Below, piece after piece: positions 15,513 to 64,000 of a DNA stretch of 64,000 bases. The notes below the pieces were generated by a model. That model did no database searches and had not been told where the DNA came from. It was given only the letters and a program-made list of their open reading frames with translations. Position 1 is the stretch's first letter; each line of letters starts with the position of its first letter. The stretch comes from an uncultured virus (IMG/VR IMGVR_UViG_3300042384_001469) (lineage: Duplodnaviria; Heunggongvirae; Uroviricota; Caudoviricetes): IMG/VR virus record IMGVR_UViG_3300042384_001469; one strand, 5' to 3'. The position numbers and the translations under genes are program-made.

Positions 15513-15535
15513 AACACATCGGATGTTTTAAAAAT

Positions 15536-31726: not shown

Positions 31727-34700
31727 TTATATAAATTTTATTTTATCATTAAAGGTTAATAACTCTTCAGTTAAGTTTACTGTTTTATATATATTCTGAA
31801 GTTCGGTTGATTGTTGGGTTGTTGGTGTTAGTGTCTCAGTAAAATCAACTATAACATCAACATCTTTGTTATATGGAGTGTAAGAGTCTTTATCATAATC
31901 TTCAGTATAAAGAACCCCTAAACCTTCTACAGCACTTAAAACTTCTTCTTGTCCAATTCCATATTGTTCCATAACATAAAAGAACTCATCTTTAACAAAA
32001 TTGTAAAGGTTTTGAGGGTTAGTTACATCTTTAATCCCAACAGTTAATTTATCAATTATCTCATCAACATTTGATGTTGCCTTATAAGTACTCCAAAATA
32101 TTGTACCCATTTTTTGAAATTGTAAATCTGTATCAGTAAAATAATCAGGAGATATTTCAAAAGTTGATGTGTCATAATCATTATTTAAAAAACCATAAGT
32201 ATTTTTATATTGATTTAAATAATCTGTCAAATCAGTACCAACTTGGTCATAGTTTAATCTTAGATTTATAAAATCACTAGACGACCCATCAATATCATAT
32301 ACAACAGTAGAGTTATCAGGTAATAAATAACCGTCATTTAATAAATCAACATAATTTAATTTTCTAAAGGTTTGTACATAATTTTCTTGATAAGAAGTTA
32401 AATCATTAATAATTGCATTAACCCCTTGTAAAGTATTATTTTTACATTCTTCAATAAAAGATTTTAAATTGTTTTTAAATTTACGAACATCTGAATTTTT
32501 AAATCCCGCGTCATCCATACTAACAACCAAATAGTTAGTGTCAATATTATCAACTAAATTTGCAGACAACTCATCAAATATTTGTTGGTAGTCTACGTAT
32601 TTACCAACGATTTCAACTGTTTGAGGACTACTAAATCTTCTTATTTCACCAGTATAACAATTGGCAAATTTGGTAGCAATTTGAGTCGCGCCAAATCCAT
32701 AATCAGTAATCATTTTATTTACACTATTATAGACAATTTCATAATAACCAATAGTTTGGTCTAACAAAGTATTCATTATTTTTTTATAATTTGTAGTACC
32801 AGTTATTCCACTACTACTATAAAATTTACTTTGAATTTCACCAATTGTTGTACCTCCATTAGTCTGTGGTAATCCATTATTAATAATTGGGTTAATTGGT
32901 TTTTTCTCAAAAATTGCCGCAATTATACTCTCATCTAAAGCATCTGTATTTTCAGTTTCATCAGCCCTATCATCGTACATTTCAGTATTAGCGTAAAAAT
33001 TAAATGAAAGCGCATTTTGTAATTTATCAACAGGTTCTTTAAGTCCCATTCCACCTATGATGTTAAAATTTAAAGTAACATTGGCAATCATTGGTTGAAC
33101 CCCAATACCTTCAGGGTTTATATCTAAATTTTCATAAGTAAAACTAAGACTATTTGGAATAATTTTAGTATTATAAAAGTCACCAATTCTTAATACTAAA
33201 ACAGGTGGAGTACCAAAAGAAGTATTTATTGCGTCATTTTGAACAAAACTTTTAGAGTCAGAGTCGTATGTTGGTATTGTGTCACCAGGTCTAACGCATT
33301 GATTTAAGAAAGTTAATCTTGAATTTAATCCTTCAGGTGTCATTGAGTGAAACGCTGGATGAAAATGTTTTATTTTTTGACTAAAACTGTCGTAAAAAAT
33401 TGGGTCACTACCTTTAATCATATCAAAATAATCACATTCACTCAAAAGATATCTTATGAATTTTTTTGCAATTTTATCATATGGTTTTTGTGTAGTTCGA
33501 CTTGTTTGAGGAATTTTTATCTCAACTCTGTCAGTTACAGGAATTTCAGTTGGTACCAAAATAACTTGTTCTCCGTTATCAGGTTGAGGTACATTTTCAG
33601 CCGGAGTTACTTTTATTTCTCTAATACCTACTCTTCTACATCCCATAGCGTTTGCAGAGTACCAACTGTCTGTTGGTGGTTGTTGTAACGTAACATCATT
33701 ACAAACAAACGTAGAGTTATAATCAGGTCCTACAACATTAACTGTCGCAACTTCTCCCAAAGCTTTTGTTTCAATTAACAATTTATTGTCGTTTATTAAT
33801 TGAGCGAATGTATTAGTACCATCAAATGAAAAAGTACTAAACATATTTTTCACATTACTAACCCTTCTTTCCGCCAATTTTTTATTATACGACACACTTG
33901 CAGAAGCCGATGTTGTTCCGTCAAGATATATGATACATTGTGTAATTTTTCCATCAGTCATATCCTGATAAAGTTCAGTCATCATTTCCTTAACTTTAGT
34001 CCAATTCCATTCAATAACACTAAACATTTTTTCTACACCTTCTCTCTTGTCTTCATTAGCATATCCAAGATATAAATCTTTTTGTTGTATATATGTGTCA
34101 TATAAATTTTGATAATTAGTCGTAGTTGTTGTTTGAGTAGTTTCAGGGTCAGGATAATCATTTTCATAATAAAAACCATATTTACCTTCGTATTTAGAAC
34201 TATCAAATGCGGGTCCTGGTGGTGGAATAGGATTTGGTACAACTGTTGGTATTTGTTCTTGTACAATTCGTTCTATTTCGTGAACTTCAACACCCCCTCC
34301 TTCTAAAACAGTCTGTACCTCAAAAAAGAAATCTATTGGGAAAAAGTTATAACTACTTGCTAAATCGTATAAATCATATTTTTTACATCCTGAAAAAAAT
34401 GAATCCATTACTTTATTTAACACCTTATCGTCTAAACTTTTATATACTTTATCAACTAAAAGATTAGTTATTGATGGATGGTCAACAATTATTTTCCAAG
34501 TCAAAGTTCCACTTCTTGATGTGTCTTTATAAGTATATATTGGTTCGGGTCTACCTAAAAAACTGTTTGAATGGAAATTTGCAGTAGATGAATCAGTAAA
34601 AGTTAATCCGTATGGTGGGAACCACATAACTCTACCCCCATTTGGACCTCTTTCACACACAGGTAAATCATTATAAGTAAATCCCTTTCTTTTTGAACCC

Positions 34701-46246: not shown

Positions 46247-48004
46247 TTGGAAACAGGAACTTCACATTTAAGTATTGAACAAAAAGCCCTAAGTATTTTA
46301 GAAAATTATGAAGGGTCAAATAACTATATACTTAAAATTAAAAAACAATGTGAGACAAACAAAAAACACATCCCAACTAGAGCTCAATGTGAGTATATAA
46401 TAACTTATTATACCACAACTCCAAAAGTTGCCAAAAAATGGGTGGATATTGATTCTTATTTTTCACAAAAACTTGTCGAGGATAATCCATTTATAAAAGA
46501 GCCTGATAAAATTTATGTAGAAAAAATTTTAATAGAAAAAGATAAATCTTATCATATTTGGGGTAAGATTCATAGTGGTGAAACTATTCATGATTTTTGG
46601 ATACCTAAAGCCGCGATTGTTAAACAATATAAAGAAAATGTAATTGAGGTCGATTATTCTAAGTATCAAAATCGACCCCCCTTATCTCACCAAAAAGAAG
46701 CGATAGAAAAACTATTAAAAAATGATAAATTCATTTTAGCGGACGATATGGGATTAGGTAAAACTACCTCAACAGTAATTGCAAGTTTAGAAAGTGGTGC
46801 TAAAAAAATATTGATAATTTGTCCAGCGTCTTTAAAAATCAATTGGGAAAGAGAAATTAAAAATTATACAGATAAAAATATTTTTATTTGTGAAGGTAAA
46901 AAATATGAGGACAGTGATTTTGTAATTACAAATTATGATATCCTTAAAAATTTTTACGACCCAAAGGACAAAGAAAATTCATTAATATTCAAATCAAATT
47001 TTGATTTAATCATAATTGATGAAGCACATTATGTTTCTAACGCTCAGGCACAAAGAACCAAAATTATAATGGACTTAACTAAGAATGTTAAAAAACTTTG
47101 GTTATTAACAGGTACTCCAATGACATCAAGACCAATGAATTACTACAATCTTTTAAAATTAATTGATAGTCCTGTTAGTCAGAATTGGATGGCGTACGCA
47201 ATTAGATATTGTAACGGATATCAATTTAGGGTTGGTAATAAAAAAGTTTGGAATGTTACAGGTGCATCAAATTTAGAAGAACTTAGAGAAAGAACTTCTC
47301 GTCAAATTTTAAGAAGACTAAAAACAGATGTTTTAGATTTACCTGAAAAAATAATGACCCCTGTTTATTTGAGATTAAAATCAAAATTTTATGAAGGATT
47401 AATGGGTGAGTACTATGATTGGTATAATAATAGACAAGAAGAATCTAAATCACTTTCAATACAGTTTACAAAATTAATGAAAGTAAGACAAGTTATTGCC
47501 GAAGAAAAAATACCAACAACAATTGAGTTAGCTGAAAATATTTTAGAACAAGGTAAAAAAGTAATCATTTTTAGTAATTTTACAGAACCTCTAAAAAAAA
47601 TACATGAACATTTTGGTAAAAAATCAGTTTATTTAGATGGGTCAACTACAAAACCCGCAAGACAGGATGCTGTTGACAGATTTCAAACTGATGAAAAAGT
47701 TCAAGTATTTTGTGGTAATATTAAAGCCGCAGGTGTTGGTTTAACATTAACCGCGGCTGAGGCGTGTATTATGAATGATTTATCTTTCGTACCCGCAGAC
47801 CATTCACAAGCTGAAGATAGAGCGTACCGATATGGTCAAAAAAATTCAGTTTCCGTATATTACCCAATTTTTGAAAATACAATTGAAGGGGTAATTTATG
47901 ACATTTTAGATAACAAGAAAAAAATAATAGGAACTGTAATGGGTGACGACGGAACGTCCTCGGATATTGTTGAACAAATACTTAACGAAATCAATAGTAA
48001 GTAA
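46247..48004 (+). CDS. SNF2-family helicase/translocase (HARP/SMARCAL1-like)
   Basis: LADDMGLGKT, ICPASLKINW, DEAH, LTGTP, LRRLK, GVGLTL, QAEDRAYRYGQ; TTG start. Confidence 0.92.
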   Translation: METGTSHLSIEQKALSILENYEGSNNYILKIKKQCETNKKHIPTRAQCEYIITYYTTTPKVAKKWVDIDSYFSQKLVEDNPFIKEPDKIYVEKILIEKDKSYHIWGKIHSGETIHDFWIPKAAIVKQYKENVIEVDYSKYQNRPPLSHQKEAIEKLLKNDKFILADDMGLGKTTSTVIASLESGAKKILIICPASLKINWEREIKNYTDKNIFICEGKKYEDSDFVITNYDILKNFYDPKDKENSLIFKSNFDLIIIDEAHYVSNAQAQRTKIIMDLTKNVKKLWLLTGTPMTSRPMNYYNLLKLIDSPVSQNWMAYAIRYCNGYQFRVGNKKVWNVTGASNLEELRERTSRQILRRLKTDVLDLPEKIMTPVYLRLKSKFYEGLMGEYYDWYNNRQEESKSLSIQFTKLMKVRQVIAEEKIPTTIELAENILEQGKKVIIFSNFTEPLKKIHEHFGKKSVYLDGSTTKPARQDAVDRFQTDEKVQVFCGNIKAAGVGLTLTAAEACIMNDLSFVPADHSQAEDRAYRYGQKNSVSVYYPIFENTIEGVIYDILDNKKKIIGTVMGDDGTSSDIVEQILNEINSK

Positions 48005-48017
48005 GTATTTATTATTG

Positions 48018-48728
48018 ATGAAATCATTAAATTTATTATCAGAATCTTTACAGAAAAAAATAACAGGTGATATAGTATTACCTGAAACAAAGTATTTTAT
48101 CAATGAAATGAAAACCATAGGTATCGATAAATTACCGTATGGTTATGCATCTCTTCGTAGGTTTATTGACCCTGAAACTATGAAGTTTCATTATCAAAAA
48201 CATTATAAAGGGTACGTAAAAAAATTAAACTCAGCGTTACGAAAAAGAGATTACGGTGATGTTGAGTTAGAAAATATTGTTAAACAAATTTCAAAATATA
48301 ATACCGTAATTAGAAATAATGCGGGTGGAGCATTTAATCACGCACTTTTTTGGAAAATGTTATCTCCAACACCTCAAAAACCATACGGTGAAATTTTAGA
48401 AAAAATTAAAAAAGATTTTGGTTCTTATAGAGAATTTAAAGAAAGGTTTGAGTCTGTTGCAAAAAAAAGATTTGGTTCTGGATGGATATGGTTAGTAATA
48501 ACAAAAAGTGGTAAATTAAAAGTGATGTCTACTCAAAACCAAGACAATCCATTGATGAATATATTTGACAGAGGTGGGTTCCCAATTTTAGGGTTAGATT
48601 TATGGGAACATGCATATTATTTAAAATATCAAAATAAAAGAGACGAATATATTACAAATTTTTGGGATGCGGTAAATTGGAAATTCATAAATGAACTTTA
48701 TTTATCTAAAACTAAAAAGTCAAATTGA
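48018..48728 (+). CDS. sodA: Fe/Mn superoxide dismutase, probably Mn-type, with N-terminal extension
   Basis: LPYGY..L...I..ETM.FHYQKH, NNAGGAFNH, FGSGW, NQD, DLWEHAYY. Start re-assigned to ATG 48018, after TATTTAT. Confidence 0.93.
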   Translation: MKSLNLLSESLQKKITGDIVLPETKYFINEMKTIGIDKLPYGYASLRRFIDPETMKFHYQKHYKGYVKKLNSALRKRDYGDVELENIVKQISKYNTVIRNNAGGAFNHALFWKMLSPTPQKPYGEILEKIKKDFGSYREFKERFESVAKKRFGSGWIWLVITKSGKLKVMSTQNQDNPLMNIFDRGGFPILGLDLWEHAYYLKYQNKRDEYITNFWDAVNWKFINELYLSKTKKSN

Positions 48729-53090: not shown

Positions 53091-54836
53091 TTACACACTA
53101 AAATGAACATTCCAAATATCACTATTTTGACCAAACCCTTTAAACGGTGTATTAGATGACGCAACATTTGTTATTGTGTACGGAGGTGTTTTAGATATAT
53201 TATAAATTTGACCAGTCCCTGACGATACATAAAACTCTGAATTTGAAACAAAAATACCTGAAGGGTTACTTATATTATTTGTTAAATTAATTTGTACTTC
53301 AACTGTAGATGGATTTGACAATGGTAAATTTAAATTATATTGAGTTAATAAAAAGTCGTTATTAGTAACATTAGACGTAATAACAATAAGTCTATTTGTT
53401 GTTGTTTTAATTATACCACCAGTAGTAAATCTTCCATATGGTAATACCGCAAGTGATGTAAAGCTAGAATTTTCTGTAGATATTTGTCTTATTTCATTTC
53501 CATTTCCTGCTGAAAAATTGTTTTTAGAAACAATAAGAGATGTGGTTGATAAAGCAACAAATGACCTGTCAAAATTTCCAGATAAAGTTAATAAACTTAT
53601 ATTTGATGAATTAGGACTTGAATTATATCGTATAGTCTGATATCCGTTAAAATAGAAATGTCTAATTTCACCTGTGGTTGTTGAAAATCCTTTTGAATAC
53701 CAAGAAGTTGGGGTTGTCGTAATTAGTGTGGTAGTTGTAAAATTGTTAACATAATTGCCAGGGTAAACATATTGACAAACAGTATTATAAATTGAACCAT
53801 TTGGATAAACCAAAGTATAAAAAGAACCAACCACAGTTGTTACTGGGAATTTTGTTGGGGTAATTGTTGGGGTTACTGTATTTGTTGGAGTAATACTAGG
53901 TGTTATTGTATTTGTTGGTGTATTTGTTGGTGTAATCGAGTTAGTAGGGGTATTTGTTGGCGTAATTGAGTTAGTAGGTGTAACTGTTGACGTATTAGTT
54001 ACGGACGGGGTCATGGCTGGCGTTGAAGTATTTGTAGGAGTTACAGTTACAGTTGGAGTAGGGGTAGGGGTAGTAGTATTTGTTGGAGTTTGTGTTTTAG
54101 TCGGTGTTTTTGTATTTGTAGGAGTTGTAGTCGTTGTCGGAGTTTGAGTATTAGTTGGTGTATTAGTTGGTGTTTGAGTTAATGTTGAGGTCATTGTTGG
54201 TGTATTAGTCGGAGTAGTTGTGTTAGTTGGTGTTTGGGTTAGTGTTGCGGACATTGTTGGAGTAGAAGTAGGTGTTGGGGTTTTAGTATTATCTGGAGTA
54301 GGTGTTGGAGTTGAGGTCGTTGTTGGTGTTACAGTTGGAGTAACTGTTACCGTACTTGTTGGGGTCGCAGTGCTAGAAGGTGTGTTTGGAGGGGTTACAG
54401 GTATTGGTATTGGTAATACTTGGTCACAACAAGGATACTCTACCTCATAACTATTTGCAAATGAGTATCCATCTATTGAAAAACTATCAATTATATTAAC
54501 AAAAACTCTATCTCTTATTTTAAAAACAACTGAACCGTTTGTATCAACTATTGATAATTCTACCACATATCTACCTAATTTTTTTGTTTCTTCGTTTTTA
54601 AATTGATACTCAACAAAATAAAGTATTTTTGTGTCATCATACTCAGATTGTCCTGTAACAATTGAACATGGTCTACTTGCGAATTTTATTTCCGAATTTA
54701 CAGGGTCAATTAATGTTATATAACTTGAGGTTACGCCGCTTAAATTTTGTATGTTATTAAAATCGCTCCTACCATCTTGAAATATTTCAAATTTCAATAA
54801 AGGTAACGTCGCATTCTTTTTTATAAAAAATTCCAT
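53091..54836 (-). CDS. Putative virion fibre/appendage protein: BppU-like N-terminal domain, mucin-like Thr/Pro stalk, beta-rich C-terminal head
   Basis: [16 protein letters not shown]-terminus, about 185 aa of TPT-rich repeats, then a beta-propeller-like tail. Confidence 0.6.
53845..54415 (-). repeat. Degenerate coding repeat encoding (T-P-T-x-x-x)n, a mucin-like domain
   Basis: [31 protein letters not shown]...; plus strand shows gttggtgta/gttggagta runs. Confidence 0.9.
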
Positions 54837-55204
54837 TAAGTGGTTATTGTTGATTCGGTAACGTTTATGAATAATTTATCTCTTATTGGTAATAAAAGAG
54901 TTCCATTTTCAGATTTTAACAAAAACTCACCTTCAAATCTTCCTGATTTAGACGTGTCATTTTTTGAAAATTTATAGTAAATATAATATTCAACATCAGA
55001 GTTTGGTTCTAAAAATATTTTTTCAACAAAACCGGCAGAAGAATTTAATATTTTATAACTTCCATTATTAATGTCTTTCATTGAAAAGTATAATACAGAT
55101 TCCTCAATAATTTGTAACATAGTGTCAATATCGTGTTTACCGTCTTTAACAACTTGCATCTTTAATATAGGTAAAGTGGTATTTTGACCAATATAGAATT
55201 CCAT
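54836..55204 (-). CDS. Stand-alone BppU-N-like adaptor domain; paralogue of the N-terminus of the downstream protein
   Basis: [18 protein letters not shown]...YYKF...DT...GRFEGEF...[11 protein letters not shown] aligns by eye with the first ~120 aa of 53091..54836. Confidence 0.6.
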
Positions 55205-55231: not shown

Positions 55232-56914
55232 TTAACTTTCTTTCCTTAATTTTGAATCATAATGTTCAAAACGGTTATGTTCAGTAGGTGTAATTAACAA
55301 TAATCCTGGATTTAGATTACCAATGACTGTTTCTTGAAACATGTGACTCATCCATGTTTGTTCATACGGATGATTCCATTTTGTTTCTAAAAACATTTTT
55401 TGATTTCCTGATTTGGAAACTATTTGAGGCCAATTACAATAAAATATTTCACCTGTAGCAACAGGTATATCTTCATACGATGTTATTGATGTAAACTTAG
55501 TTTTTGGAGAATTTGGGTCCAATCCCATTTCAGGTAATTTTGGATTTTCAGGCCAATGTTTTTCTCTAAATGACTGAGGTACATTATACCAACTCCATTG
55601 GGTCCCATTATTACCAAAAAATTCGGTATAATTTAATTTTAAAAAATCAAAATTATAATTTTTAATAATGTTTAATGATTTGTTATATAAATTTTTTACA
55701 TATCTATTAAATCCATTTTTACATACTTGTCCTTCTTCAGGATAAAAAAACATATCGTCTTCGAAAAAAAACATAAAGTCACTATCACTTTTTTCAAAAT
55801 GTTCAGCTATAAATTGTCGACCACCACAAATTCCTAAATTTTCTTCAGACCAAATTATTTCAAAATTATGTAACTCACATATTTTTATATATTGTTCATC
55901 AGTAGTTCTATCAGTAGAATTATTTAAAAGATATTTTTTTGGTTTTTCTATGAAATCCTTGTCATACGATATCATAGAAGTAATTAAAGTTTCAAGTTGT
56001 TTAGGACTGTTAAAACCAATAACATATAAAGACGTTTTATCGATATCTAAACCATTATACAAATTAATTGGTAATTTATTTTTTACTTCTAAAATTTCAT
56101 TTTTAGCATTTTCAAAAAATGTACCTAATAATCCATCATAATTTATTTCGAAATAATTTATAATTTTTGGGTACTTATAAACCATTATTGAAAATATTGA
56201 TTCTTCAGTACCCATATAACCTTGAGATAGAGTTTCATTTAACAACCCATAATAAAGGGAATTTACTTCCGCAATAGATTCTTTTGTTCCTCCAAAAAAC
56301 CCTCCTCGTCCAACTAATCTTACATCATCATTCGCCCAATCATTAATTTTAGGATATGAAAACCCGTGAATTTCATTGTTTGCATCGTATGGAAAACAAA
56401 TGAAAGAAAATTTAGTAATTTTACTATCTATTTTTTTTAATACATTATCATGTGTAAAATACCCTACGTGAACTGTATTTGTTATACCAGCATCTATCCA
56501 AAATAATTTATCAGAATTAAATTTATCTAAAATTTTTGCATCGTGAAGAAGAAACATTTTAGACATCACTAATGGGTTGTAAAATTCTAATTTTGACTGT
56601 GTAGACTCAGGTAACCATGAAGATTGATTATACCATTTTTCGTCATTTCTAATACCTTGAATTTTGCCAAAAAACTCATTTTTAAACCACGATAATTCTC
56701 TTAATACAAATTGAGTGTTCTCAGATTTTCGGTTTTCCCAAACAAATTTTTCAAGCTCAGAGTCTCCAAATATTATTAAATTTTCCTCAATTGTTAGAAG
56801 TTGTTTAAATTTTTCTAAATAGTGTTCTTTAAATGGTCTCGCCCATCCTTCATTTAACCCATCTCTTTTTAAATCCCAAAGCCCTGTAACTAAAGTTATC
56901 TTACTCATAATCAA
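55232..56914 (-). CDS. HtrL/YibB-like domain fused to a GT2-like glycosyltransferase domain
   Basis: ITLVTGLWDLKR, WIDAG, GGFFGG, GTEE (HtrL-like); then FNSPKQL...ENLGICGG...FFFEDD (GT-A). Confidence 0.65.
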   Translation of the reverse strand: MIMSKITLVTGLWDLKRDGLNEGWARPFKEHYLEKFKQLLTIEENLIIFGDSELEKFVWENRKSENTQFVLRELSWFKNEFFGKIQGIRNDEKWYNQSSWLPESTQSKLEFYNPLVMSKMFLLHDAKILDKFNSDKLFWIDAGITNTVHVGYFTHDNVLKKIDSKITKFSFICFPYDANNEIHGFSYPKINDWANDDVRLVGRGGFFGGTKESIAEVNSLYYGLLNETLSQGYMGTEESIFSIMVYKYPKIINYFEINYDGLLGTFFENAKNEILEVKNKLPINLYNGLDIDKTSLYVIGFNSPKQLETLITSMISYDKDFIEKPKKYLLNNSTDRTTDEQYIKICELHNFEIIWSEENLGICGGRQFIAEHFEKSDSDFMFFFEDDMFFYPEEGQVCKNGFNRYVKNLYNKSLNIIKNYNFDFLKLNYTEFFGNNGTQWSWYNVPQSFREKHWPENPKLPEMGLDPNSPKTKFTSITSYEDIPVATGEIFYCNWPQIVSKSGNQKMFLETKWNHPYEQTWMSHMFQETVIGNLNPGLLLITPTEHNRFEHYDSKLRKES

Positions 56915-57773
56915 AAAATCTAATGTTATTACTTAATTTAGTTTGATTGTACGATGCCGCAAAAAATAAAAAAACAGACCACCAATTACATATTCTAAAT
57001 ATTTTTTCAGATTTAGACATTGCATACATCTCAAATAAAGTAGATTTAAAAAAATACATTAATTCATCATCACTTAATCCTAAACTTCTTGTTGTACTTA
57101 AATCACCTTTATAAACATAATCATTGTAATATAAATTTTTATAATTACATTGCTTAAGTTCATTTTTTAAAATTTCAAATTGTGTAAACACAAATATTGG
57201 TCTATCTTGATTTTTTTCAATAAAATTTTTAATTGACTGTATTGAATTTGATAATTCTTCAGTTTGGTTATTTAATTCAAAAGGTCTGTAATGTACACAA
57301 TAAAAATTTTCAGGAAATGATTTTAGTTTTTCTTCGCAGAATGACACCACTTCGTCAGTTAAAAAACTTAATTTTGGCCACTCATCGTACATTATCCATT
57401 TTCTATAATTTTCAATATGAGGAAAATTATTTAAATCTTCCACTCCCTCAATAATCTCATCAACATAAACATAATATATTTTTGAATTATCAATAACTAA
57501 TTTAGTTTCATTTCTTTCAGGAAAATTTCCTTCATGAGGACTAAATCCACTAGTAAAAAATGTAAAATTATCTAACTTGTCTAATTTAAAAATTTTAAAA
57601 AAAACATCTCTATTTTCATTATTCATTTTATAAGGATTTAGGCCAAAATCAACATAAGTTTTAACCTTATATCCCATCTCTTTTAATTTTTCTTGTGTTA
57701 GATATACTGAATAGATTGTTGAATACATATCCCCCAAACCTGAATTCATACCGGTAGTAATATACGCATTCAT
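56901..57773 (-). CDS. NodZ / O-fucosyltransferase-like GT-B enzyme
   Basis: SGLGD, CVHYR, IFVFT, EMYAMSKS...WSVF resemble inverting fucosyltransferase motifs I-III. Confidence 0.55.
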   Translation of the reverse strand: MNAYITTGMNSGLGDMYSTIYSVYLTQEKLKEMGYKVKTYVDFGLNPYKMNNENRDVFFKIFKLDKLDNFTFFTSGFSPHEGNFPERNETKLVIDNSKIYYVYVDEIIEGVEDLNNFPHIENYRKWIMYDEWPKLSFLTDEVVSFCEEKLKSFPENFYCVHYRPFELNNQTEELSNSIQSIKNFIEKNQDRPIFVFTQFEILKNELKQCNYKNLYYNDYVYKGDLSTTRSLGLSDDELMYFFKSTLFEMYAMSKSEKIFRICNWWSVFLFFAASYNQTKLSNNIRFFDYE

Positions 57774-57777
57774 ATTT

Positions 57778-58698
57778 TTAACTATTTAAAATGTCTATCC
57801 AAACCATGTATAATGGTTTAGGTTTACCCCAAGATGGGTCCCAAAGTTCAAAATGATATTGGTCATGTTCATCAGTTTGGTGAACGTCAAAAATTAAAGG
57901 ATGAACAATGTCTTTTAATTTATCATAAACTAATTTCATTATTGATTCTTCTGTACATAAAAATTCTTTATCAATAATTTTATCACAAAAATTCCAATAC
58001 TCATTTATATAATTTTTTAACTGTTTAGTATCTCCTCCAATCATACCTGCAATAGGATAATATGGTCTAATATCATAATCAATTATTCCTTTAGTTTTAA
58101 AAACATATCCTGATTGAGGATTTGTTGCGGTTAAATTTAAAACTTTATTCTCACTAATCTCATTCATTTTTATGAAAAGTTCAGTATTGAATAATTTTGT
58201 AAAATCATATTGAGATATTTGATTATTATTCCACACAGGTACTTCATTTGGATTATGAAATTTTTTATCCCCATATGGAACACAGTACATCCACGGGAAT
58301 ATCCCTGGATGTTGTAATCCTCCGTCAACCCAATAGACCCTATCAAAACCTTCTAACTCTTGTTCAAGAACTTGGAATTTTCCCCACATTATTTCAGGTC
58401 CTCTACCATCTAAGTCAGTATCAAAATTTTTATCTCTAACATCTTTTATTTTTTTATGATACTTCATGTCAGATAATTCCAATATTTTAATTTCAAGATT
58501 AGATAAATTATAATCTAATTTAAGTTTTTCAATTTCGGATTTATTTTTTTCGTGAGTGTAACAAACAACTGGAAAATTAATACCACGGCAATGACTAATT
58601 AAAGACCCATAATATCTATCTTTTCTAACTGAGCTAGCCCCTTGGAAAGGGTACCCAGCGACATCTAGCCATAAGGCGGTTACTATTTTAGTTTTCAT
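57778..58698 (-). CDS. HtrL/YibB-like putative glycosyltransferase
   Basis: TKIVTALW, VYWVDGG, AGMIGG, CTEESIM; paralogous to the N-domain of 55232..56914. Confidence 0.6.
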   Translation of the reverse strand: MKTKIVTALWLDVAGYPFQGASSVRKDRYYGSLISHCRGINFPVVCYTHEKNKSEIEKLKLDYNLSNLEIKILELSDMKYHKKIKDVRDKNFDTDLDGRGPEIMWGKFQVLEQELEGFDRVYWVDGGLQHPGIFPWMYCVPYGDKKFHNPNEVPVWNNNQISQYDFTKLFNTELFIKMNEISENKVLNLTATNPQSGYVFKTKGIIDYDIRPYYPIAGMIGGDTKQLKNYINEYWNFCDKIIDKEFLCTEESIMKLVYDKLKDIVHPLIFDVHQTDEHDQYHFELWDPSWGKPKPLYMVWIDILNS

Positions 58699-59438
58699 TA
58701 GAATCTAACGTGAAAATCTCCAAGTTTAGTGTAGAACGAAAAACAATTTTGAATGAAGTGATTTAAAACTCCTTCATATTGGTATTTCATGTCAGCTTCT
58801 AATGCTGAAATTCCAATTTCAAAACCATCAGGATAATTTCTAATGTCATTAGCGATACTATACCATAAAAATTGTTCCCATCTTTGTACAAAAAATTTAA
58901 ATTTTGAATTGTTCCTAAAAACTAAAAATTGTTCGTTAACCACATGAGCCTCATCCCATTTATTATGGTCAAAAACATCGTAATCAAAAAGTTTATCTCT
59001 AAAAAAACTTTCATTTGGATTTAACTTGTGAGGACCAATTGGTGCGGGTCTTTCAAACAAAAAATCAACATTATTTTGTTCCATATGGTCAAGCATGTTT
59101 AATATTTTTTGTTCATCAAATCCATCATGCATTCTCCAATCACCATCAGTAAAAATAATATAATCGGGACTATTTCCAGTTTCTTTCTGATGTTCTAGTA
59201 TATGTTTTAAAGATAAAACTTTTAAATTTAAATTAAAATTAAATCCTCCCCTTGAATCATATAATGGTGGGTTAACAATTTTTGTGTGAATTCTGTCACC
59301 TTGATTTCTTAATTGTTCATTATTTGTTGTGATAAAAAACTCACATTCTTTAGTTTTTTCACGTAACTCTTTATAAAACTCAGGAGTGATAGTTTCATAA
59401 GGTTCGTTGATTGCTAGTGTTGTAAAACAGTATCTCAT
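58698..59438 (-). CDS. GT-A fold nucleotide-sugar glycosyltransferase, family uncertain
   Basis: FTTLAI..Y, FFITT, FNFNLKV, IIFTDGD (DxD motif). Confidence 0.5.
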   Translation of the reverse strand: MRYCFTTLAINEPYETITPEFYKELREKTKECEFFITTNNEQLRNQGDRIHTKIVNPPLYDSRGGFNFNLNLKVLSLKHILEHQKETGNSPDYIIFTDGDWRMHDGFDEQKILNMLDHMEQNNVDFLFERPAPIGPHKLNPNESFFRDKLFDYDVFDHNKWDEAHVVNEQFLVFRNNSKFKFFVQRWEQFLWYSIANDIRNYPDGFEIGISALEADMKYQYEGVLNHFIQNCFSFYTKLGDFHVRF

Positions 59439-59440
59439 AT

Positions 59441-60118
59441 TTATAAATTTAAATCATTTAAATATTGCAGGCATTGCTCCCCGCTTGGTTTAGTTGGGTT
59501 ATCGTATTCATCTAACTGAATTCCAATAAAAAAATTTTTATTATCTCTACGTATATAGGTCTCAGGTTTGTCATACCCACAGTAAAAAATATTATCATCT
59601 GAAATTTTTGACATATATTCATGTAAAATTTCTTGGTCAGTCCCCCATCTCAAATCAGAACTACTAATAAAACTATTAAAATGGTCCTCAAAATCAGTAA
59701 TTTTTCGTATTATACCAAATAAACCACTAGGTACTGGAGAATGCCACGGGTGGTCTCTTATTATAAAATAATCTTTATTAGATTGTACCCATCTATTGAT
59801 ATATTCCACTTCTCGTTCAGAAAGTCTACTATCTAAATCTCTAGATATTGTAATCCCGTCATCAAAAAAAGAAATAAATCTCCAAAAAAATGGGTAATCT
59901 TTTGGAGGACGATTACCAAATGAAAAAGACGACACGTCAATCATTTTTGCCCCCATATTTGATAATTTATCAATATATTCGTTACGAATCATTTCAGGAT
60001 GGTAATAAATCACCGTTTCCCAATCAGGTAATAACTTTTGATTGATTAAAATATTTTTCTCAGCACCTGTGTAATATTTGTAGTCTAATCCAAATAAACT
60101 GTAAGAAATTGATTTCAT
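59441..60118 (-). CDS. Uncharacterised GT-A-like protein
   Basis: ISYSLFG...Y..GA..N, WRF, SRDLDSR (DxD), IRDHPWH, GLFG, DQ.IL. Confidence 0.55.
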   Translation of the reverse strand: MKSISYSLFGLDYKYYTGAEKNILINQKLLPDWETVIYYHPEMIRNEYIDKLSNMGAKMIDVSSFSFGNRPPKDYPFFWRFISFFDDGITISRDLDSRLSEREVEYINRWVQSNKDYFIIRDHPWHSPVPSGLFGIIRKITDFEDHFNSFISSSDLRWGTDQEILHEYMSKISDDNIFYCGYDKPETYIRRDNKNFFIGIQLDEYDNPTKPSGEQCLQYLNDLNL

Positions 60119-60119
60119 A

Positions 60120-61109
60120 TTAAATAATTTTACTAAAAAAATCTAAAATGTAATCCTCATCGAAATAAATTGGTAATTTATTTTCATTAAAAATAGGAGA
60201 TTCAAAATAAGATTTTAATTTATTATTATCAGAATATATTGTATTTAATTCATCGACTAATTCATCAAAATTTTTAAATTTGTGAGCATTGATAAATGAC
60301 TCAGGATTAAATCCTTCTTCTTCAATGTATTGGTTACCATAAAATATTGGAATTGAATTAGAAGCGAATGCATGTATTATTTTTTCTTGAGTTAGATAAT
60401 CCGTATTAGTATATTGAAAAGCCATGTTGAATGTACAGTCTGAGAAAAAATTAATTTTATCCCTATAGGTTAACCCGTCAATTTTTCCCATATAATCTTT
60501 ATTGGAATAGTTATGATATTTGTGAGGATTTAAGGTTTCTGAATCAGGTATTGTTTGTCGATACGGACCTGAACTTTTAATATAATGATACTTTTCCACA
60601 ATATTAAAAAATTGGTCTCTATCGGGATTAAAACTTGCTTGAACTAAACTACAAAAATGTTTTTTTATTAGTTTAATATCTTCGTATTTTTTTGGTTTGG
60701 TTAACCAACCAAAATTACTTTCAAATAGACCTCCTTCATTATGGAGTACATGCGCGTCTAAAACATATGTTGGGAACCTTAAATATCTGTCATGGTCATG
60801 GTGTTCATATCCTAAAGCGTAATAGTTTTCCCCTTTATTTAAATGAGATAAGAAATCAGGTCTTGCCTCACCACTTATGAATATTTTTTTTACGTTATCA
60901 TTGTATTCATGAATACCTTTAACAATTTCGTTAGTGTAAAAATCTAATTCGTTTTCTCTGTAAAATTGGTTAGTATAAATAACCAAATCAGGATTTTTAG
61001 AATCTATTATTACATTATATTTTTTGGATAATATTTCATAAAAGAAATTCATCCATGAAAAATTCCCCACACCTGGAAAATTAGCTCTACTTATTCTTAT
61101 AGTCTTCAT
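60120..61109 (-). CDS. Alpha-1,3/4-fucosyltransferase-like (GT10)
   Basis: KIFISGE, RYLRFP, FCS, FNMAFQ...DYLTQEKIIHAFASNSIPIFYG, FNPESFIN as in Helicobacter-type GT10. Confidence 0.82.
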   Translation of the reverse strand: MKTIRISRANFPGVGNFSWMNFFYEILSKKYNVIIDSKNPDLVIYTNQFYRENELDFYTNEIVKGIHEYNDNVKKIFISGEARPDFLSHLNKGENYYALGYEHHDHDRYLRFPTYVLDAHVLHNEGGLFESNFGWLTKPKKYEDIKLIKKHFCSLVQASFNPDRDQFFNIVEKYHYIKSSGPYRQTIPDSETLNPHKYHNYSNKDYMGKIDGLTYRDKINFFSDCTFNMAFQYTNTDYLTQEKIIHAFASNSIPIFYGNQYIEEEGFNPESFINAHKFKNFDELVDELNTIYSDNNKLKSYFESPIFNENKLPIYFDEDYILDFFSKII

Positions 61110-61948
61110 TTTTTATAAATGTCATCAATTTTAATGTGAACATATCGGTCTTCATCATCAACTTTTAAATTAACATGAGTTCCAAAATTTTTATTGTTTG
61201 AATTTGGCCCATCGTTAGTGACCGGCCAATATATTTTACTCGCATTTGATAAGAAACATACCCAAAATGAAAATGTACCTTGACAAGCAATTATTTTATT
61301 AAATGATGTTAGTTCTTTAAACACATCTAAAATTGAACCCTCAATATATTTTGGATTATAAATTTGTAATTTATCTAAAATACTTTTATGGTTATAGACA
61401 TGGTCAAAAGAAACGTATAAATTTTTAAAATTTTCTTTTTCCAAAATGTTAAGGTAATATTCATCAGGCAATACAAATCTACCATCGTCTCTACTATTTC
61501 TTAACATCAAAACCAAATCGTCATCATTTCTTTTTGGTAATACTATTTCTGAAAGAAAATTTCTAACTTTTTCTTTGTACGGTTTAATATAATCGTACTT
61601 AGAAAAATAGGAGGCGGAAATAATTTTATGTCCCCGACAATGGTCTACCATTTTTTCGACAGTATTCAATGTTAATACATCAGTGTCCCCAATTGAGATG
61701 ACTGGACCTTCAATTGACTCTTTTCCGGTAATGGATTTAAATGGGAATACTTGCTCAACATATTGACCAACACTTAATTCTTCTCTACGTATTAATGAAT
61801 TATCAGGAACAATTAAATCATAATTTAATTCATCGGCAATAAGTCTACTAACAGAATAAATAAATAATTTATTTCCTAAGTTTTTTCTGTAACTAGAAAA
61901 GTGACCTCCTTTCAATCCTTCACAGTAACCATCAAAAATTTCAACCAT
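61106..61948 (-). CDS. Alpha-1,2-fucosyltransferase-like (GT11)
   Basis: LGNKLFIY, LP.EYY, LYVSFD, IIACQGTFSFW. Confidence 0.68.
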   Translation of the reverse strand: MVEIFDGYCEGLKGGHFSSYRKNLGNKLFIYSVSRLIADELNYDLIVPDNSLIRREELSVGQYVEQVFPFKSITGKESIEGPVISIGDTDVLTLNTVEKMVDHCRGHKIISASYFSKYDYIKPYKEKVRNFLSEIVLPKRNDDDLVLMLRNSRDDGRFVLPDEYYLNILEKENFKNLYVSFDHVYNHKSILDKLQIYNPKYIEGSILDVFKELTSFNKIIACQGTFSFWVCFLSNASKIYWPVTNDGPNSNNKNFGTHVNLKVDDEDRYVHIKIDDIYKK

Positions 61949-61950
61949 AA

Positions 61951-63195
61951 TTATAAATTACCTGTTATTCTTTCACCCCATCCTTTTGATTCTGAATATG
62001 GCCAAACAACCCAATATGTTGGTTTTTTAGTCATATTAAATTCTCTCCAAATTTTTATATAACCATCAGGGTCATCCATCATTCTTGCAATTTCAGATTT
62101 ATCGGCATCTTTTCTAAAAAGTGTTTCATCTGTTTCATCATGAAATGCAACAACCCAAAATTCATAATCTTTTTCAGGTACTTGAGAATATTGTAAATCA
62201 ATACAATGTTTAAAAATCGATGAGAATGAATTCATCCATTCTTCTTCAGAATTAAAATTATAAGGATTTGGTGGGTAATGTTTATCTATTGTCCATTGTT
62301 GGATTGCTCTTTTGGAAAAAAGTAACCCTGAATATTTTTCATAGTCTTTTAATGTCCTTTGTTTACCAAATCCATATTTTCCATGGTTCATTGGTTCTTC
62401 ACCATCCATTCCAAATAGACTTCTATTTTTTTTGTGACAATAATCATTTTTACTTACCCAATCTTTATCATCATCCCATTGTTTAGTTCTTCCCTTTCTG
62501 GTATATTCGTGCCAAATAAGAATTTTATGTATATGAAATAAATCATAACCATGTGTGTACGCTCTAGCTGCAATTGATATCTCCTCACCATGAAAATAAA
62601 ATTCAGGGTCATGTTGTACTTCTTTGGAAAATTTACCTAATGTGAAACAATAATGTGCTGAGTAAAATCTTGCAGGAACTGGTTCTGTCATACTTTGCCA
62701 TCCAGGGATTACTTCAGGTAGGAAAAATACCGCCCCTTCAGGTATGAATCTATCAAAAACCATTCTCCAAGGTTCCATAACTCTAGAGTTTGGGTCATCG
62801 TCAGGGTCAAAAGATGGAACATATCCTGTTAATAAAGGTTTTTTATGTCCTTTTTTCTGTAACTTTTTAATGATATCAATCATTTCAACATCCCAATTTT
62901 CAGCGAATCTCATGTGAGAATCAATTTGTAATGTGTATTCTTCTTTTTGATAAAGTTGTTGTATTTGATTTCTAGCCCAACAAGCCCCTTTAGATTCTTC
63001 ACATGGAATATCTAAAATTCTAAATCTGTCATCACCTCTATATTCATCCAAATTATCAAATCCATCTTCAATATGAAATTGTCTGGCAATTCCGAATATT
63101 AAATTTTCAGGATGTTTGGCATTATCTAATGCGGATTTAATAGTTGGTATTAATTGTGGGTCTCTATAAGACGCGACTTGGATAAAAATTTTCAT
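61951..63195 (-). CDS. GT60 polypeptide alpha-GlcNAc transferase-like (Skp1 Gnt1 / trypanosome OGNT family)
   Basis: IFIQVASYRDPQL..TI, SKGACWAR, LQIDSHMRF..NWD, LLTGY, FYFHGEE...AR.YTHGYD, WHEY.R. Confidence 0.82.
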   Translation of the reverse strand: MKIFIQVASYRDPQLIPTIKSALDNAKHPENLIFGIARQFHIEDGFDNLDEYRGDDRFRILDIPCEESKGACWARNQIQQLYQKEEYTLQIDSHMRFAENWDVEMIDIIKKLQKKGHKKPLLTGYVPSFDPDDDPNSRVMEPWRMVFDRFIPEGAVFFLPEVIPGWQSMTEPVPARFYSAHYCFTLGKFSKEVQHDPEFYFHGEEISIAARAYTHGYDLFHIHKILIWHEYTRKGRTKQWDDDKDWVSKNDYCHKKNRSLFGMDGEEPMNHGKYGFGKQRTLKDYEKYSGLLFSKRAIQQWTIDKHYPPNPYNFNSEEEWMNSFSSIFKHCIDLQYSQVPEKDYEFWVVAFHDETDETLFRKDADKSEIARMMDDPDGYIKIWREFNMTKKPTYWVVWPYSESKGWGERITGNL

Positions 63196-63231
63196 TATTA
63201 GTATTTTTAACCAAAAAATATAAAAATAAAA

Positions 63232-64000
63232 TTAGGTGTAAAGGAATGTTTGGTCTAATTCAATAATATAAAAATAAAAATTATTACCACAACAATTAGG
63301 TACTGACAAAGTATTCATGATGTATGGGAAAGTTTCATTTTCAACAACCACATATCTTGGTTCTCCTGAATCTTTATAATAGTAAAGATTAAATGTCATT
63401 CCTGAAAACTCATCAGATGAAAATATAATATCAGTACCTGAACTAACTCCAATTATATCATTTATTACACCATCAGAACAACTTGGGCATTTGTAATCAA
63501 ACAACTCAAAATTACCTTTCAGTATATCAAAATTATGAACAACTTCGGGGTATGTTAAAGGTTCGGTATACATTCTAAATTGTGAAATTGCTCCGTCAAA
63601 TGAACCTGCAAAATTAGGTTCAATAAAAATATTTGTGGTTAACGCTGATAAGGATGTCCCCGATAATGTTTCGTTTGGCATACATTCAGGGTCTTGTTGA
63701 TACGTTAATCCAGACAATGAAGTCGGACATTCTCTAAAAGTTAAACTTTCTCTTAATCCTTGTGTACCTCCACCCCATCCGATATTGAAGGGAACCCCTA
63801 TTTGTTTTTCTTTTTCAGTATTTAATCCTCTTGGGATTACTTCTTCAAATCCGTTAATAACGTAGAATAATCTACCATTTATGTATATCTTCAAAGAACC
63901 TAATCTTTGGTCCTTTTCAATCAACCATTCCTCATTTAGATTAACTACTTCAATTTGGTCTGCAGGAGTCTCTCCTGAATGTGTGTACGGTATTGTAATT
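63232..64000 (-). CDS. C-terminal part of a LamG/concanavalin-like virion protein (5' end lies outside the window)
   Basis: Frame is open beyond the track's TTG to the window end. LKIYING...IGWGG...FDGAISQFRMYTEPLT..EV is a LamG-like pattern. Confidence 0.6.
   Translation of the reverse strand, partial: ITIPYTHSGETPADQIEVVNLNEEWLIEKDQRLGSLKIYINGRLFYVINGFEEVIPRGLNTEKEKQIGVPFNIGWGGGTQGLRESLTFRECPTSLSGLTYQQDPECMPNETLSGTSLSALTTNIFIEPNFAGSFDGAISQFRMYTEPLTYPEVVHNFDILKGNFELFDYKCPSCSDGVINDIIGVSSGTDIIFSSDEFSGMTFNLYYYKDSGEPRYVVVENETFPYIMNTLSVPNCCGNNFYFYIIELDQTFLYT

Follow-up and report, generated by a model that had tools for sequence, protein, structure and literature searches.

Cytoplasmic mucin-type O-glycosylation is regarded as a eukaryotic trait, and phage protein glycosylation is, to our knowledge, known from very few systems. 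The closest described enzymes are found in glycosyltransferase family 60 (GT60), which corresponds to the Pfam family PF11397 (PMC6418280). In Trypanosoma cruzi, the UDP-GlcNAc:polypeptide alpha-GlcNAc-transferases TcOGNT1/2 belong to this family; TcOGNT1 makes GlcNAc-alpha-O-Thr on mucin-like proteins, and the account cited describes TcOGNT as Golgi-located, with Thr-rich mucin-like acceptors whose chains are variably extended by other enzymes (PMC9472816). Gnt1 adds alpha-GlcNAc to a hydroxyproline of Skp1 and requires that PhyA make this hydroxyproline (PMC6939170); in Dictyostelium and Toxoplasma it is described as a cytoplasmic, soluble, chain-starting enzyme, followed in the pathway by the two-domain GT74+GT2 protein PgtA (PMC6939170, PMC11468063). 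Among phages, transferases encoded by mycobacteriophages decorate the phages' own structural proteins, with glycans on the C-termini of capsid and tail-tube proteins, and the part of the account cited shows no link to GT60 or to Thr/Pro tracts (PMC12619734). Our searches of the literature other than subscription journals returned only passing CAZy listings for GT60 or PF11397 with phage, virus or bacteria, nothing on a pairing of GT60 with Thr/Pro tracts under virion glycosylation, jumbo-phage O-glycosylation, mucin-like phage proteins or VgrG with glycosyltransferase, and no measured sugar, glycopeptide or activity for any prokaryotic or phage GT60 homologue.

The window analysed here, a 64-kb stretch of DNA from an uncultured virus, belongs to a low-GC T4-like jumbo phage, with genes for T4-type sheath, tube and baseplate proteins, gp32, UvsX, DnaB, RNR and PolB and a GC content of 26-37%. 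It encodes a 414-aa protein with an ATG start (61951..63195; this and all features below lie on the minus strand) whose sole Pfam match is PF11397 'GlcNAc' (E 1.7e-64, 218.9 bits against a cut-off of 21), placing a GT60-family gene in a bacteriophage as the initial annotation had proposed. The match is split in two stretches, the last ending at residue 292, and phrog_24687 covers the full length including the C-terminal domain (E 2.4e-171, residues 2-411 against profile positions 3-406 of 409). The Pfam search gave no GT2 match at E<=0.01, and neither the best HMM match nor the best structure match was a generic GT2 polysaccharide enzyme, the outcome that the annotation had named as speaking against it. 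Both motifs noticed initially are retained: QIDSH (residues 90-94) contains the DxH motif D92-S93-H94 (62914..62922), by analogy a putative metal site, and GEE occupies residues 203-205 (G203-E204-E205; 62581..62589). Across an alignment of 53 homologues, D92, H94, E204, E205 and H229 are invariant and G203 occurs in at least 90% of the sequences. The invariant H229 (in WHEY; 62509..62511) is a candidate third metal ligand, a role suggested by analogy with the chemistry of GT27 enzymes.

The AF2 model of the protein (pLDDT 96.2) has a GT-A fold with a DxH-type metal motif, its catalytic domain comprising residues 1-292 (62320..63195). The model opens directly with strand 1 and the highest Kyte-Doolittle 19-residue mean is 1.14, so that the protein has no membrane segment, in agreement with the earlier statement that a signal anchor is absent. 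In the structural ranking, polypeptide transferases stand above polysaccharide enzymes, with a margin of 1.4 Z units or more and roughly 80 additional residues aligned. The catalytic-domain fold is common to the GT27 polypeptide GalNAc-transferases of animals and Toxoplasma, which are membrane-anchored Golgi proteins; however, identity to these is only 10-15%, a sequence search of the PDB with the phage protein gave no match, and its accessory domain is FN3-like rather than a ricin-type lectin. This accessory domain is the extra C-terminal domain of the initial annotation, and fold prediction resolved it into a linker (residues 293-324) followed by a predicted FN3-like beta-sandwich (about residues 325-414; 61954..62220), with pLDDT >87 throughout and structure matches that were generic FN3-like only. 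It probably helps to grip the acceptor protein; the bacterial homologues L134 and L145 have a PqqD recognition domain joined to their GT60 catalytic domain at the place where the phage protein has the beta-sandwich. Compared with the Golgi-located TcOGNT, the phage enzyme is soluble and unanchored, carries the FN3-like domain and is without Pfam profile positions ~45-95. By analogy with the family, it may be a retaining enzyme that transfers alpha-GlcNAc from UDP-GlcNAc, while donor specificity is not readable from sequence.

Homologues from cultured phages are four only, distant and detected at the protein level; genes annotated 'glycosyltransferase' in the jumbo phages XacN1, Xoo-sp13, CM1 and RAS14 are full-length homologues, with 46-48% identity over 99-100% including the C-terminal domain. 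Megablast of positions 57000-64000 against 50,697 phage records gave no match, and the nearest record (G001, a 47.6-kb fragment) is without a GT60 gene. Aquatic jumbo 'moraphages' are described as having four core glycosyltransferase groups and Bacteroidota hosts (PMC12619734). For the sequence beyond the window end we used a related locus (L002) as a proxy, in which GT60 and ten cluster genes match at 100%. There, three co-directional genes encoding 519, 195 and 551 aa precede GT60; GT60 is thus the first gene of the glycosyltransferase run but not of its co-directional run, whereas the initial annotation had placed it first in the operon. The gene directly upstream, separated by 36 nt with no terminator-like site in the gap, is open at the window end, so that the window contains the last 255 aa of its product (63232..64000), a Cys-rich protein of 551 aa whose end is weakly LamG-like; the full-length protein from L002 has weak matches to phrog_8510 and Laminin_G_3. 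A scan for sigma-70 promoters and terminators stayed at chance level (80 found against 72 expected), as did the T4 late-promoter motif (14 matches against 16 expected).

Downstream of GT60 extends a block of glycosyltransferase genes bracketed by a conserved partner. Across 78 related phage loci, GT60 (78/78) and a two-domain HtrL_YibB/GT2 gene (63/78, downstream of GT60 in 58 of the 63 loci having both) enclose a variable, swappable set of genes. The partner in the window encodes 560 aa (55232..56914), with a match to PF09612 at residues 5-254 (E 9.5e-16) and a GT2-like second half; a homologue (L086) also matches PF00535 at residues 305-408, and a PDB sequence search gave no match. Its outline resembles that of PgtA, the second enzyme of the Skp1 pathway, and the PgtA literature examined gives no link between HtrL_YibB and GT74. 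Each of the six genes in between occurs in only 3 to 20 of the 78 loci. Next to GT60 lies a probable glycosyltransferase of 280 aa (61106..61948; phrog_2644 'glycosyltransferase', E 2.4e-4, with a weak GT11 match, E 0.018; 3/78 loci), followed by a GT10-like fucosyltransferase of 329 aa (60120..61109; PF00852, E 8.6e-11, and PF18025; 6/78) and a probable GT-A transferase of 225 aa (59441..60118; 7/78) that has no Pfam match and whose nearest Atlas clusters, named glycosyltransferase with a score of 0.98, serve as a lead only. The remaining three are a 246-aa protein without a match in Pfam, PHROGs or NCBIfam (58698..59438; 10/78), a 306-aa protein without a family match (57778..58698; 20/78, mostly at 22-30% identity) and a 290-aa protein, also without a family match (56901..57773; 3/78).

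A second frequent companion of the enzyme is a class of Thr/Pro-repeat proteins. In the window, the sole such ORF lies 396 bp past the HtrL gene and encodes a mucin-like protein (g581; 53091..54836) consisting of an N-domain, a Thr/Pro tract and a C-terminal phrog_15511 domain. The tract (residues 143-345; 53802..54410) comprises 203 residues, of which 90 are Thr, 40 Pro and 14 Ser, so that P+T+S amounts to 71% against 27% in the remainder of the protein. The 519-aa protein just beyond the window end shares the phrog_15511 domain and has TQTPT-type repeats. Between g581 and the HtrL gene, a 122-aa protein (g122; 54836..55204; 43/78 loci) is a paralogue of the g581 N-domain (29% identity over 118 aa, E 3e-14); its assignment as a PqqD-like domain was rejected, as there was no Pfam support even at E<=10. 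Thr/Pro-repeat ORFs are present in 64 of the 78 phage loci, many of which are close relatives rather than independent samples, and in 48 they fall inside the GT60-HtrL block or no more than 300 bp from it. Their density near GT60 (131 per 1.35 Mb) compares with 7 and 8 per ~215 kb in two whole relatives. Fourteen of the 78 loci have no such ORF, some of those in related phage genomes sit 60-100 kb from GT60, and Thr/Pro tracts are common flexible linkers; the adjacency could merely reflect a shared variable 'host-interaction' island.

Taken together, kinship to protist starters of mucin chains and the flanking Thr/Pro proteins suggest that the phage probably sugar-coats those proteins, and on balance we favour the interpretation that its GT60 starts Thr O-glycosylation in the phage's own Thr/Pro stalks. 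As a soluble, metal-dependent GT-A enzyme made in the cytoplasm of the infected cell, it would most likely move the first sugar from a UDP-sugar to Thr (or Ser) hydroxyls of long Thr/Pro tracts, g581 and the 519-aa protein being the candidate acceptors. The characterised GT60 enzymes suggest by analogy that this first sugar is an alpha-linked HexNAc and probably GlcNAc. Extension of the chain would fall next to the HtrL_YibB/GT2 enzyme and the phage-specific transferases (GT10-like, GT11-like and others), so that related phages would carry different glycans. This logic of a neighbouring Thr/Pro tract and a variable extension cassette matches that of T. cruzi TcOGNT, whereas the Skp1 acceptor is a single Pro and the phage candidate a repeat tract. 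The protein-O-glycosyltransferase reading of the initial annotation is supported in part. The analysis shows the family and fold of the enzyme, its motifs and solubility, the order of the genes and the statistics of their co-occurrence, whereas the acceptor, the donor sugar, the order of action and the role of the C-terminal domain are inferred.

A polypeptide acceptor other than the flanking Thr/Pro proteins, such as another virion protein or a host protein during takeover, is rather improbable. The upstream LamG-like protein would be one such candidate, its gene lying immediately upstream and its homologues being found upstream of GT60 in 16 of the 78 phage loci; it is, however, a far less constant neighbour than the Thr/Pro ORFs. 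The mycobacteriophage glycans on capsid and tail-tube C-termini (PMC12619734) would fit such an acceptor, as would XacN1, whose GT60 (48% identical) also heads a gene group, with a carbamoyltransferase and a GT9-family gene, but which unlike the window shows no Thr/Pro-repeat ORF in the 8 kb on either side, even with the threshold lowered to 60%. Against this, it is specifically Thr/Pro tracts with which the bacterial genes are associated, and the proteins bearing them are otherwise unrelated.

The T4-like setting also brings in DNA as a possible acceptor, with the block adding sugars to hydroxymethyl-pyrimidines as in T-even phages. T4-like phages glycosylate their DNA, a 2024 paper, cited in PMC12619734, reportedly describes virus glycosyltransferases that hypermodify DNA with diverse glycans, the cluster is near DNA-metabolism genes (PolB in the window, dUTPase and exonuclease in L002), and two of the five related phage records carry thymidylate-synthase-family genes. 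The related record rated 100% complete, however, has GT60, HtrL and three Thr/Pro ORFs and no thymidylate-synthase-family gene for a hydroxymethyl base, the homologues in bacteria belong to T6SS, eCIS and peptide-export clusters rather than to DNA-modification loci, and the known T4 DNA glucosyltransferases are GT-B enzymes. Hypermodification of phage DNA by this block is accordingly very unlikely.

Homologues of the enzyme are numerous, and its pairing with Thr/Pro-repeat ORFs is seen again in bacteria. Among the candidates scored, 7257 were homologues at E<=1e-3, and there are 4435 clusters at 50% identity. Strong Thr/Pro-repeat ORFs were found in 15 of 31 bacterial GT60 loci, compared with 1 of 31 control regions of matching size taken from the same contigs at a distance of ~60 kb (Fisher p 7e-5); the other 16 loci had none at the 80% threshold. 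These loci are not independent samples, many being close relatives and about a dozen of the 31 being Burkholderiales T6SS clusters. The carriers of the tracts are unrelated to one another: VgrG spikes, an eCIS-cluster protein, a T9SS-sorted protein and small signal-plus-PT-plus-anchor proteins. Among 79 bacterial loci, the HtrL/GT2 gene occurs near GT60 in 27 and PqqD-like genes in 12. In one locus (L099), which speaks against the preferred reading, a lipid-carrier priming transferase (PF02397) is encoded 4 kb from GT60. A further alternative is that the block builds or alters a glycan not carried on protein, for example a polysaccharide or one of the host envelope, with GT60 as a chain builder and the Thr/Pro proteins as unrelated neighbours. 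This we consider unlikely, as the 8-gene cluster in the window has no flippase, polymerase, lipid-carrier transferase or membrane protein, GT60 itself has no membrane segment, and the structural ranking, the PqqD and prolyl 4-hydroxylase (P4H) fusions among homologues and the excess of Thr/Pro ORFs over control regions all point to polypeptide substrates.

P4H-type oxygenases adjoin GT60 or are fused to it in three bacterial loci, which makes it probable that some family members use hydroxyproline. In L087, a Lewinellaceae locus, the gene of the Thr/Pro protein that adjoins GT60-HtrL is overlapped at its end by that of a PF13640 oxygenase (30 bits); a Tepidamorphus operon has the order O-FucT-like / P4H / GT60 / HPAT-PqqD; and in Spongiihabitans, HPAT, GT60 and P4H are united in one protein of 1185 aa, with small PT-repeat ORFs alongside. 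Bacteria commonly have PF13640 genes, as do 25 of the 31 genomes with GT60, and in the tracts Pro is as abundant as the residues flanking Thr. For the phage, these observations, together with the requirement of Gnt1 for hydroxyproline, would be consistent with the same enzyme and acceptor proteins but with the sugar on hydroxyproline, the tract prolines being first hydroxylated by a host P4H. The initial annotation had noted that no prolyl hydroxylase is visible in the window, and indeed none of the 43 window ORFs scanned is a 2OG-Fe(II) oxygenase; in the five related phage records, one of them rated 100% complete, PF13640, PF13759 and PF03171 all remained below cut-off, the sole oxygenase match being one of 22 bits in one record. 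The fragment G001 likewise has no P4H above cut-off, although a host enzyme might supply the activity. Furthermore, tblastn found the L087-type oxygenase in only 1 of 79 bacterial loci, and Thr accounts for 44% of the residues in the g581 tract, which in this respect resembles the mucin acceptors of T. cruzi. We therefore regard hydroxyproline as a quite unlikely acceptor in this phage, and Thr as the preferred one.

More tentatively, and with some doubt about the whole, these observations can be joined into a broader proposal. Large aquatic phages may run their own cytoplasmic mucin-type O-glycosylation, in which the GT60 starter and HtrL/GT2 would build a core on the Thr/Pro stalks of virion fibre-like proteins and a swapped cassette would turn it into a phage-specific coat, a kind of particle 'serotype' system. 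In many bacterial phyla the same GT60 module, sometimes fused to PqqD, prolyl-hydroxylase or Hyp-arabinosyltransferase domains, would act on the Thr/Pro tracts of secreted proteins, of eCIS-cluster proteins and of T6SS spikes as their glycosylating enzyme, and it may be the prokaryotic stock of the protist Skp1 and mucin pathways. If so, a very abundant group of environmental phages would have a diversifiable glycan coat, with possible effects on adsorption, on resistance to proteases and on recognition. The GT60 family would be enlarged by a big prokaryotic branch whose acceptors, VgrG spikes of T6SS among them, can be tested, and the two enzymes together would make a compact tool for producing mucin-like glycoproteins in bacterial cells. 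Since a candidate acceptor is encoded next to the enzyme, the idea is testable with two cloned genes.

Finally, a midpoint-rooted tree was built from phage and bacterial rows only (158 input loci, four of which were left out because their coverage was incomplete or they had an internal stop, while another 20 rows were removed as exact duplicates). In this tree the bacterial clade of L087, the locus in which the oxygenase gene overlaps that of the Thr/Pro protein and which thus bears on the hydroxyproline reading, nests among phage sequences, and GT60 of XacN1 groups with Burkholderiales T6SS-linked genes, apart from the clade of the window.

The minus-strand open reading frame at 61951..63195 (414 aa, starting with ATG) was confirmed as the GT60 gene proposed in the initial annotation, PF11397, 'Glycosyltransferase (GlcNAc)', being its sole Pfam family (E 1.7e-64; 218.9 bits relative to a curated cut-off of 21 bits); a brown-alga genome paper likewise annotates PF11397 genes as glycosyltransferase family 60 (PMC6418280). 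The QIDSH and GEE motifs were found at residues 90-94 and 203-205, respectively, as claimed, and an alignment of 53 homologues (35-93% identity) revealed Q39, R75, D92, H94, F97, W101, D102, F184, F201, E204, E205, R211, G216 and H229 to be invariant. The protein lacks a signal anchor, as had been noted, since its highest 19-residue hydropathy mean is only 1.14. Both the best HMM match and the best structures were starters of protein O-glycosylation rather than generic GT2 polysaccharide enzymes, and the phage enzyme has the sequence and fold features of GT60. The Pfam match stops at residue 292, past which the AlphaFold model (pLDDT 96.2, pTM 0.90) shows a brief helical linker that leads into a beta-sandwich (325-413); the extra C-terminal domain of ~85 aa is therefore real, its suggested role in substrate recognition being a putative one. 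A GT60 paralogue of equal length in two gammaproteobacterial loci (L134 and L145) carries in the C-terminal position a PqqD domain (PF05402, residues 347-413; E 4e-11 and 8e-13), and the gene that follows encodes a second GT60 (PF11397, 424-428 aa). In RiPP pathways, PqqD serves to recognise the peptide, and the tail of the GT60 enzyme may be a slot for alternative acceptor-recognition modules.

The family proved to be large, with phrog_24687 ('glycosyltransferase') matching the protein over its full length including the C-terminal domain (E 2.4e-171). A word-indexed search with 7999 scored candidates yielded at least 7257 proteins at E<=1e-3, the best 120 of which are all 414-418 aa long and 78-93% identical, and an exhaustive search of 50%-identity representatives yielded 4435 clusters at E<=1e-3 (847 at E<=1e-30). 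These include multi-domain proteins, which contain as many as four GT60 stretches, and proteins without the C-terminal domain. Among cultured phages, only four jumbo phages (XacN1, Xoo-sp13, CM1 and RAS14) encode a relative (46-48% identity, full length), annotated as 'glycosyltransferase' at most. At least 587 stretches of GTDB species genomes code for a relative, spanning Bacteroidota, Gemmatimonadota, Verrucomicrobiota, Acidobacteriota, Actinomycetota, Planctomycetota and Pseudomonadota; given this spread, GT60 may fairly be described as characterised mainly from protists, as it had been, but not as found mainly in them. Searching the literature outside subscription journals, we found no paper on phage or bacterial GT60 or on its link to Thr/Pro proteins; GT60 is mentioned solely as a CAZy label, in a giant-virus genome paper and, together with GT10 and GT11, in a sponge virome preprint. 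Within this known family, the phage enzyme represents a branch that is new and uncharacterised.

A midpoint-rooted tree of 135 catalytic domains from phages and bacteria (4 of 158 loci excluded for incomplete coverage or a stop; 20 rows removed as exact duplicates) placed the window protein in a clade of 56 phage and 22 genome rows (78 in all), the latter mostly Bacteroidota. Chromosomal Saprospiraceae/Lewinellaceae copies are nested within this clade (supports 93-96), and the XacN1 copy groups with T6SS-linked genes of Burkholderiales (support 98). Together, these placements suggest repeated exchange of GT60 between phages and the lineages that they infect, and hint at a Bacteroidota host for the window phage.

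The phage itself is a low-GC (26-37%) T4-like myovirus, with structural genes for tail sheath, tube, baseplate wedge and hub and replication genes for a gp32-like SSB, UvsX-like recombinase, DnaB-like helicase, class I ribonucleotide reductase and family B polymerase. Two IMG/VR loci with an identical GT60 gene, L002 and L003, reach beyond the window end, and L002 shows GT60 to be preceded, after a divergence point, by three genes in the same orientation (519, 195 and 551 aa), the 551-aa gene being separated from GT60 by a 36-nt gap without a terminator-like site. GT60 thus heads the run of glycosyltransferase genes, but not demonstrably the operon of which it had been called the first gene; promoter scans gave chance-level results only. 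Just beyond the window, 7 kb upstream of the cluster, a second, unrelated glycosyltransferase gene (L002:2160-3416, minus strand; phrog_7162, E 2.8e-44) sits beside exonuclease and dUTPase genes. A short plus-strand island in the window encodes an Fe/Mn superoxide dismutase (47943-48728; PF02777 E 1.4e-40, PF00081 E 5.5e-22) and an SNF2-type helicase (46247-48004), and three very large minus-strand ORFs among the baseplate and tail genes (24750-31412, 31727-36619 and 6724-12108; 2220, 1630 and 1794 aa) have neither a Pfam or PHROG match nor a Thr/Pro tract at a 60% threshold.

Gene order in the cluster was compared with that of 78 related phage loci. GT60 has a homologue in all 78 and the 560-aa HtrL_YibB/GT2 protein in 63, its gene following GT60 at a distance of 2-9.5 kb in 58 of these and immediately preceding it in the other five. 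The genes between them recur far less often: g306 in 20 loci, g246 in 10, g225 in 7, the GT10-like g329 in 6, and g280 and g290 in 3 each. Hence a pair of conserved enzymes flanks a cassette swapped among related phages, similar to O-antigen loci. The GT60-HtrL pair is also adjacent in 27 of 79 bacterial loci, among them chromosomal contigs of Saprospiraceae (L086; 34% GC, GT60 66% identical) and Lewinellaceae (L087), in which the two genes overlap. The simplest reading of this gene order would be that a conserved enzyme initiates on an acceptor that is likewise conserved, and that variable extension follows.

A lead to candidate acceptors came from the two gammaproteobacterial loci with the PqqD-bearing enzyme. 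Directly upstream of HtrL-GT60-GT60, each encodes a small protein that begins with a signal-like stretch, continues as a long (Pro-Thr/Ser)n tract and ends in a hydrophobic-basic tail; the two proteins are 44% identical (E 3e-26). This prompted a scan for Thr/Pro tracts, defined as >=70% P+T+S in 30 residues with >=5 P and >=8 T/S. Exactly one such ORF was found in the 64-kb window, g581 (53091-54836, minus strand), 396 bp beyond the HtrL gene; its residues 143-345 comprise 90 Thr, 40 Pro and 14 Ser (71% P+T+S versus 27% elsewhere in the protein). The 519-aa protein, encoded just past the window end on the other flank of the cluster, contains ~250 residues of TQTPT-type repeats and has the phrog_15511 domain in common with g581. 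The small gene between HtrL and g581, g122 (54836-55204, minus strand; 122 aa), is retained immediately behind HtrL in 43 of the 78 related loci; its product is a free-standing protein paralogous to the first ~120 aa of the mucin-like g581 (29% identity, E 3e-14).

At least one Thr/Pro-repeat ORF was detected in 64 of the 78 phage loci and none in 14 (131 ORFs per 1.35 Mb, ~1 per 10 kb); in 48 loci the nearest lies inside the GT60..HtrL block or within 300 bp of it. Two whole relatives, G003 (217 kb, completeness rated at 100%; seven such ORFs, three in tandem just upstream of GT60) and G002 (215 kb; eight, one doubtful, two abutting the block), show tracts to be ~3- to 4-fold enriched near the block, yet not confined there. 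For bacteria, 31 GT60 loci on large contigs were compared with 31 equal-sized regions ~60 kb away on the same contigs: ORFs of >=100 aa with a >=80% tract occurred in 15 GT60 loci but only one control (Fisher P=7e-5), and at the 70% threshold in 19 versus 7 (P=0.004), the loci, like those of the phages, being phylogenetically non-independent. Such an ORF was absent from 16 of the 31 bacterial loci at the 80% threshold, and none lies within 8 kb of GT60 in XacN1, even at a 60% threshold. The bacterial tract carriers are unrelated proteins, including VgrG spikes with perfect (PT)n runs in T6SS clusters of Burkholderiales, a ~1200-aa protein in eCIS clusters of Sphingomonadaceae and a T9SS-sorted protein in Saprospiraceae, with others in Gemmatimonadota, Chthoniobacter and Actinomycetota loci.

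Several surroundings of GT60 were recorded separately. In seven Burkholderiales loci (L097, L111, L127, L137, L139, L140 and L156) a T6SS VgrG gene with perfect (Pro-Thr)n runs of >=30 residues lies a few kb from GT60, and in 18 of 79 bacterial loci the gene immediately upstream of GT60 is fimbrial/MrkD-like. In Sphingomonadaceae (L112, L116, L121 and L125), GT60 genes sit within the extracellular contractile injection system cluster, between the Pro/Thr-tract protein and the core and tape-measure genes, a second PF11397 gene being confirmed in L125. In three Bacteroidota loci (L131, L132 and L142) GT60 lies downstream of a bacteriocin-type C39-peptidase ABC exporter, which suggests glycosylated secreted peptides. 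A Ginsengibacter MAG contig (L103:1-4952) has three consecutive ORFs with KKPTPPPTTT-type repeats upstream of GT60, and near the cluster of two phage loci (L057:~14800-16000 and L058) a 919-aa ORF has ~40 consecutive serines instead of Thr/Pro repeats.

Acceptors other than protein were considered. The glycosyltransferase block might modify DNA, and thymidylate-synthase-family genes do occur in two of five related records; however, the complete relative G003 keeps GT60, HtrL and Thr/Pro ORFs without a gene of that family to supply a hydroxymethyl base. A polysaccharide or envelope glycan as product would agree with a PF02397 gene 4 kb away in one bacterial locus, whereas the eight-gene cluster itself encodes neither a flippase or polymerase nor a lipid-carrier transferase or membrane protein. 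GDP-mannose-4,6-dehydratase-family genes in two of the five records (G003 and G006; 268 and 406 bits) fit the fucosyltransferase-like genes and do not discriminate between acceptors; with them, some related phages may make their own deoxy-sugar donors.

Characterised GT60 enzymes have polypeptide acceptors (PMC9472816, PMC6939170): TcOGNT1 of T. cruzi forms GlcNAc-alpha-O-Thr on mucin-like proteins, which is then variably extended (PMC9472816), and Gnt1 transfers alpha-GlcNAc onto a hydroxyproline of Skp1, followed by the two-domain GT74+GT2 enzyme PgtA (PMC6939170, PMC11468063). On genomic evidence, the phage enzyme would work like a mucin-type starter with putative donor and acceptor; in contrast to the characterised enzymes it is soluble, has an FN3-like tail, lacks Pfam profile positions ~45-95 and is in fixed partnership with the HtrL_YibB/GT2 protein. 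The phage appears to encode a mucin-type glycosylation system for its own Thr/Pro stalks, headed by GT60 and varied through the cassette, which, if true, would be a new variant of virion glycosylation. Apart from the operon position, sequence, fold and context support the initial annotation to the extent that they can, the donor sugar and acceptor residue being putative.

As to that residue, Thr/Ser had been favoured over hydroxyproline for want of a prolyl hydroxylase in the window, and indeed no 2OG-Fe(II) oxygenase was found among the 43 ORFs scanned; PF13640, PF13759 and PF03171 gave nothing above cut-off in G001 and five larger related records, the single match below it (22 bits) being in G004. 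Because the phage records lack a hydroxylase and 44% of the tract is Thr, Thr/Ser is the more likely acceptor in the window phage, and hydroxyproline made by a host hydroxylase the less likely one. The preference does not hold family-wide. In the Lewinellaceae locus, the Thr/Pro-protein gene adjoining GT60-HtrL is overlapped at its end by a PF13640 gene (30 bits); a second Tepidamorphus locus has the gene order O-FucT-like / P4H / GT60 / HPAT-PqqD (L223:4782-9900, minus strand); and a 1185-aa protein of 'Ca. Spongiihabitans' (L222:14151-17708, minus strand), adjoined by small PT-repeat ORFs, fuses a Hyp-arabinosyltransferase-family domain, GT60 and P4H. From these arrangements, some bacterial GT60 members very likely act on hydroxyproline, and the fusion and the Tepidamorphus operon look like a bacterial kit for hydroxyproline glycosylation in the style of plant extensins.
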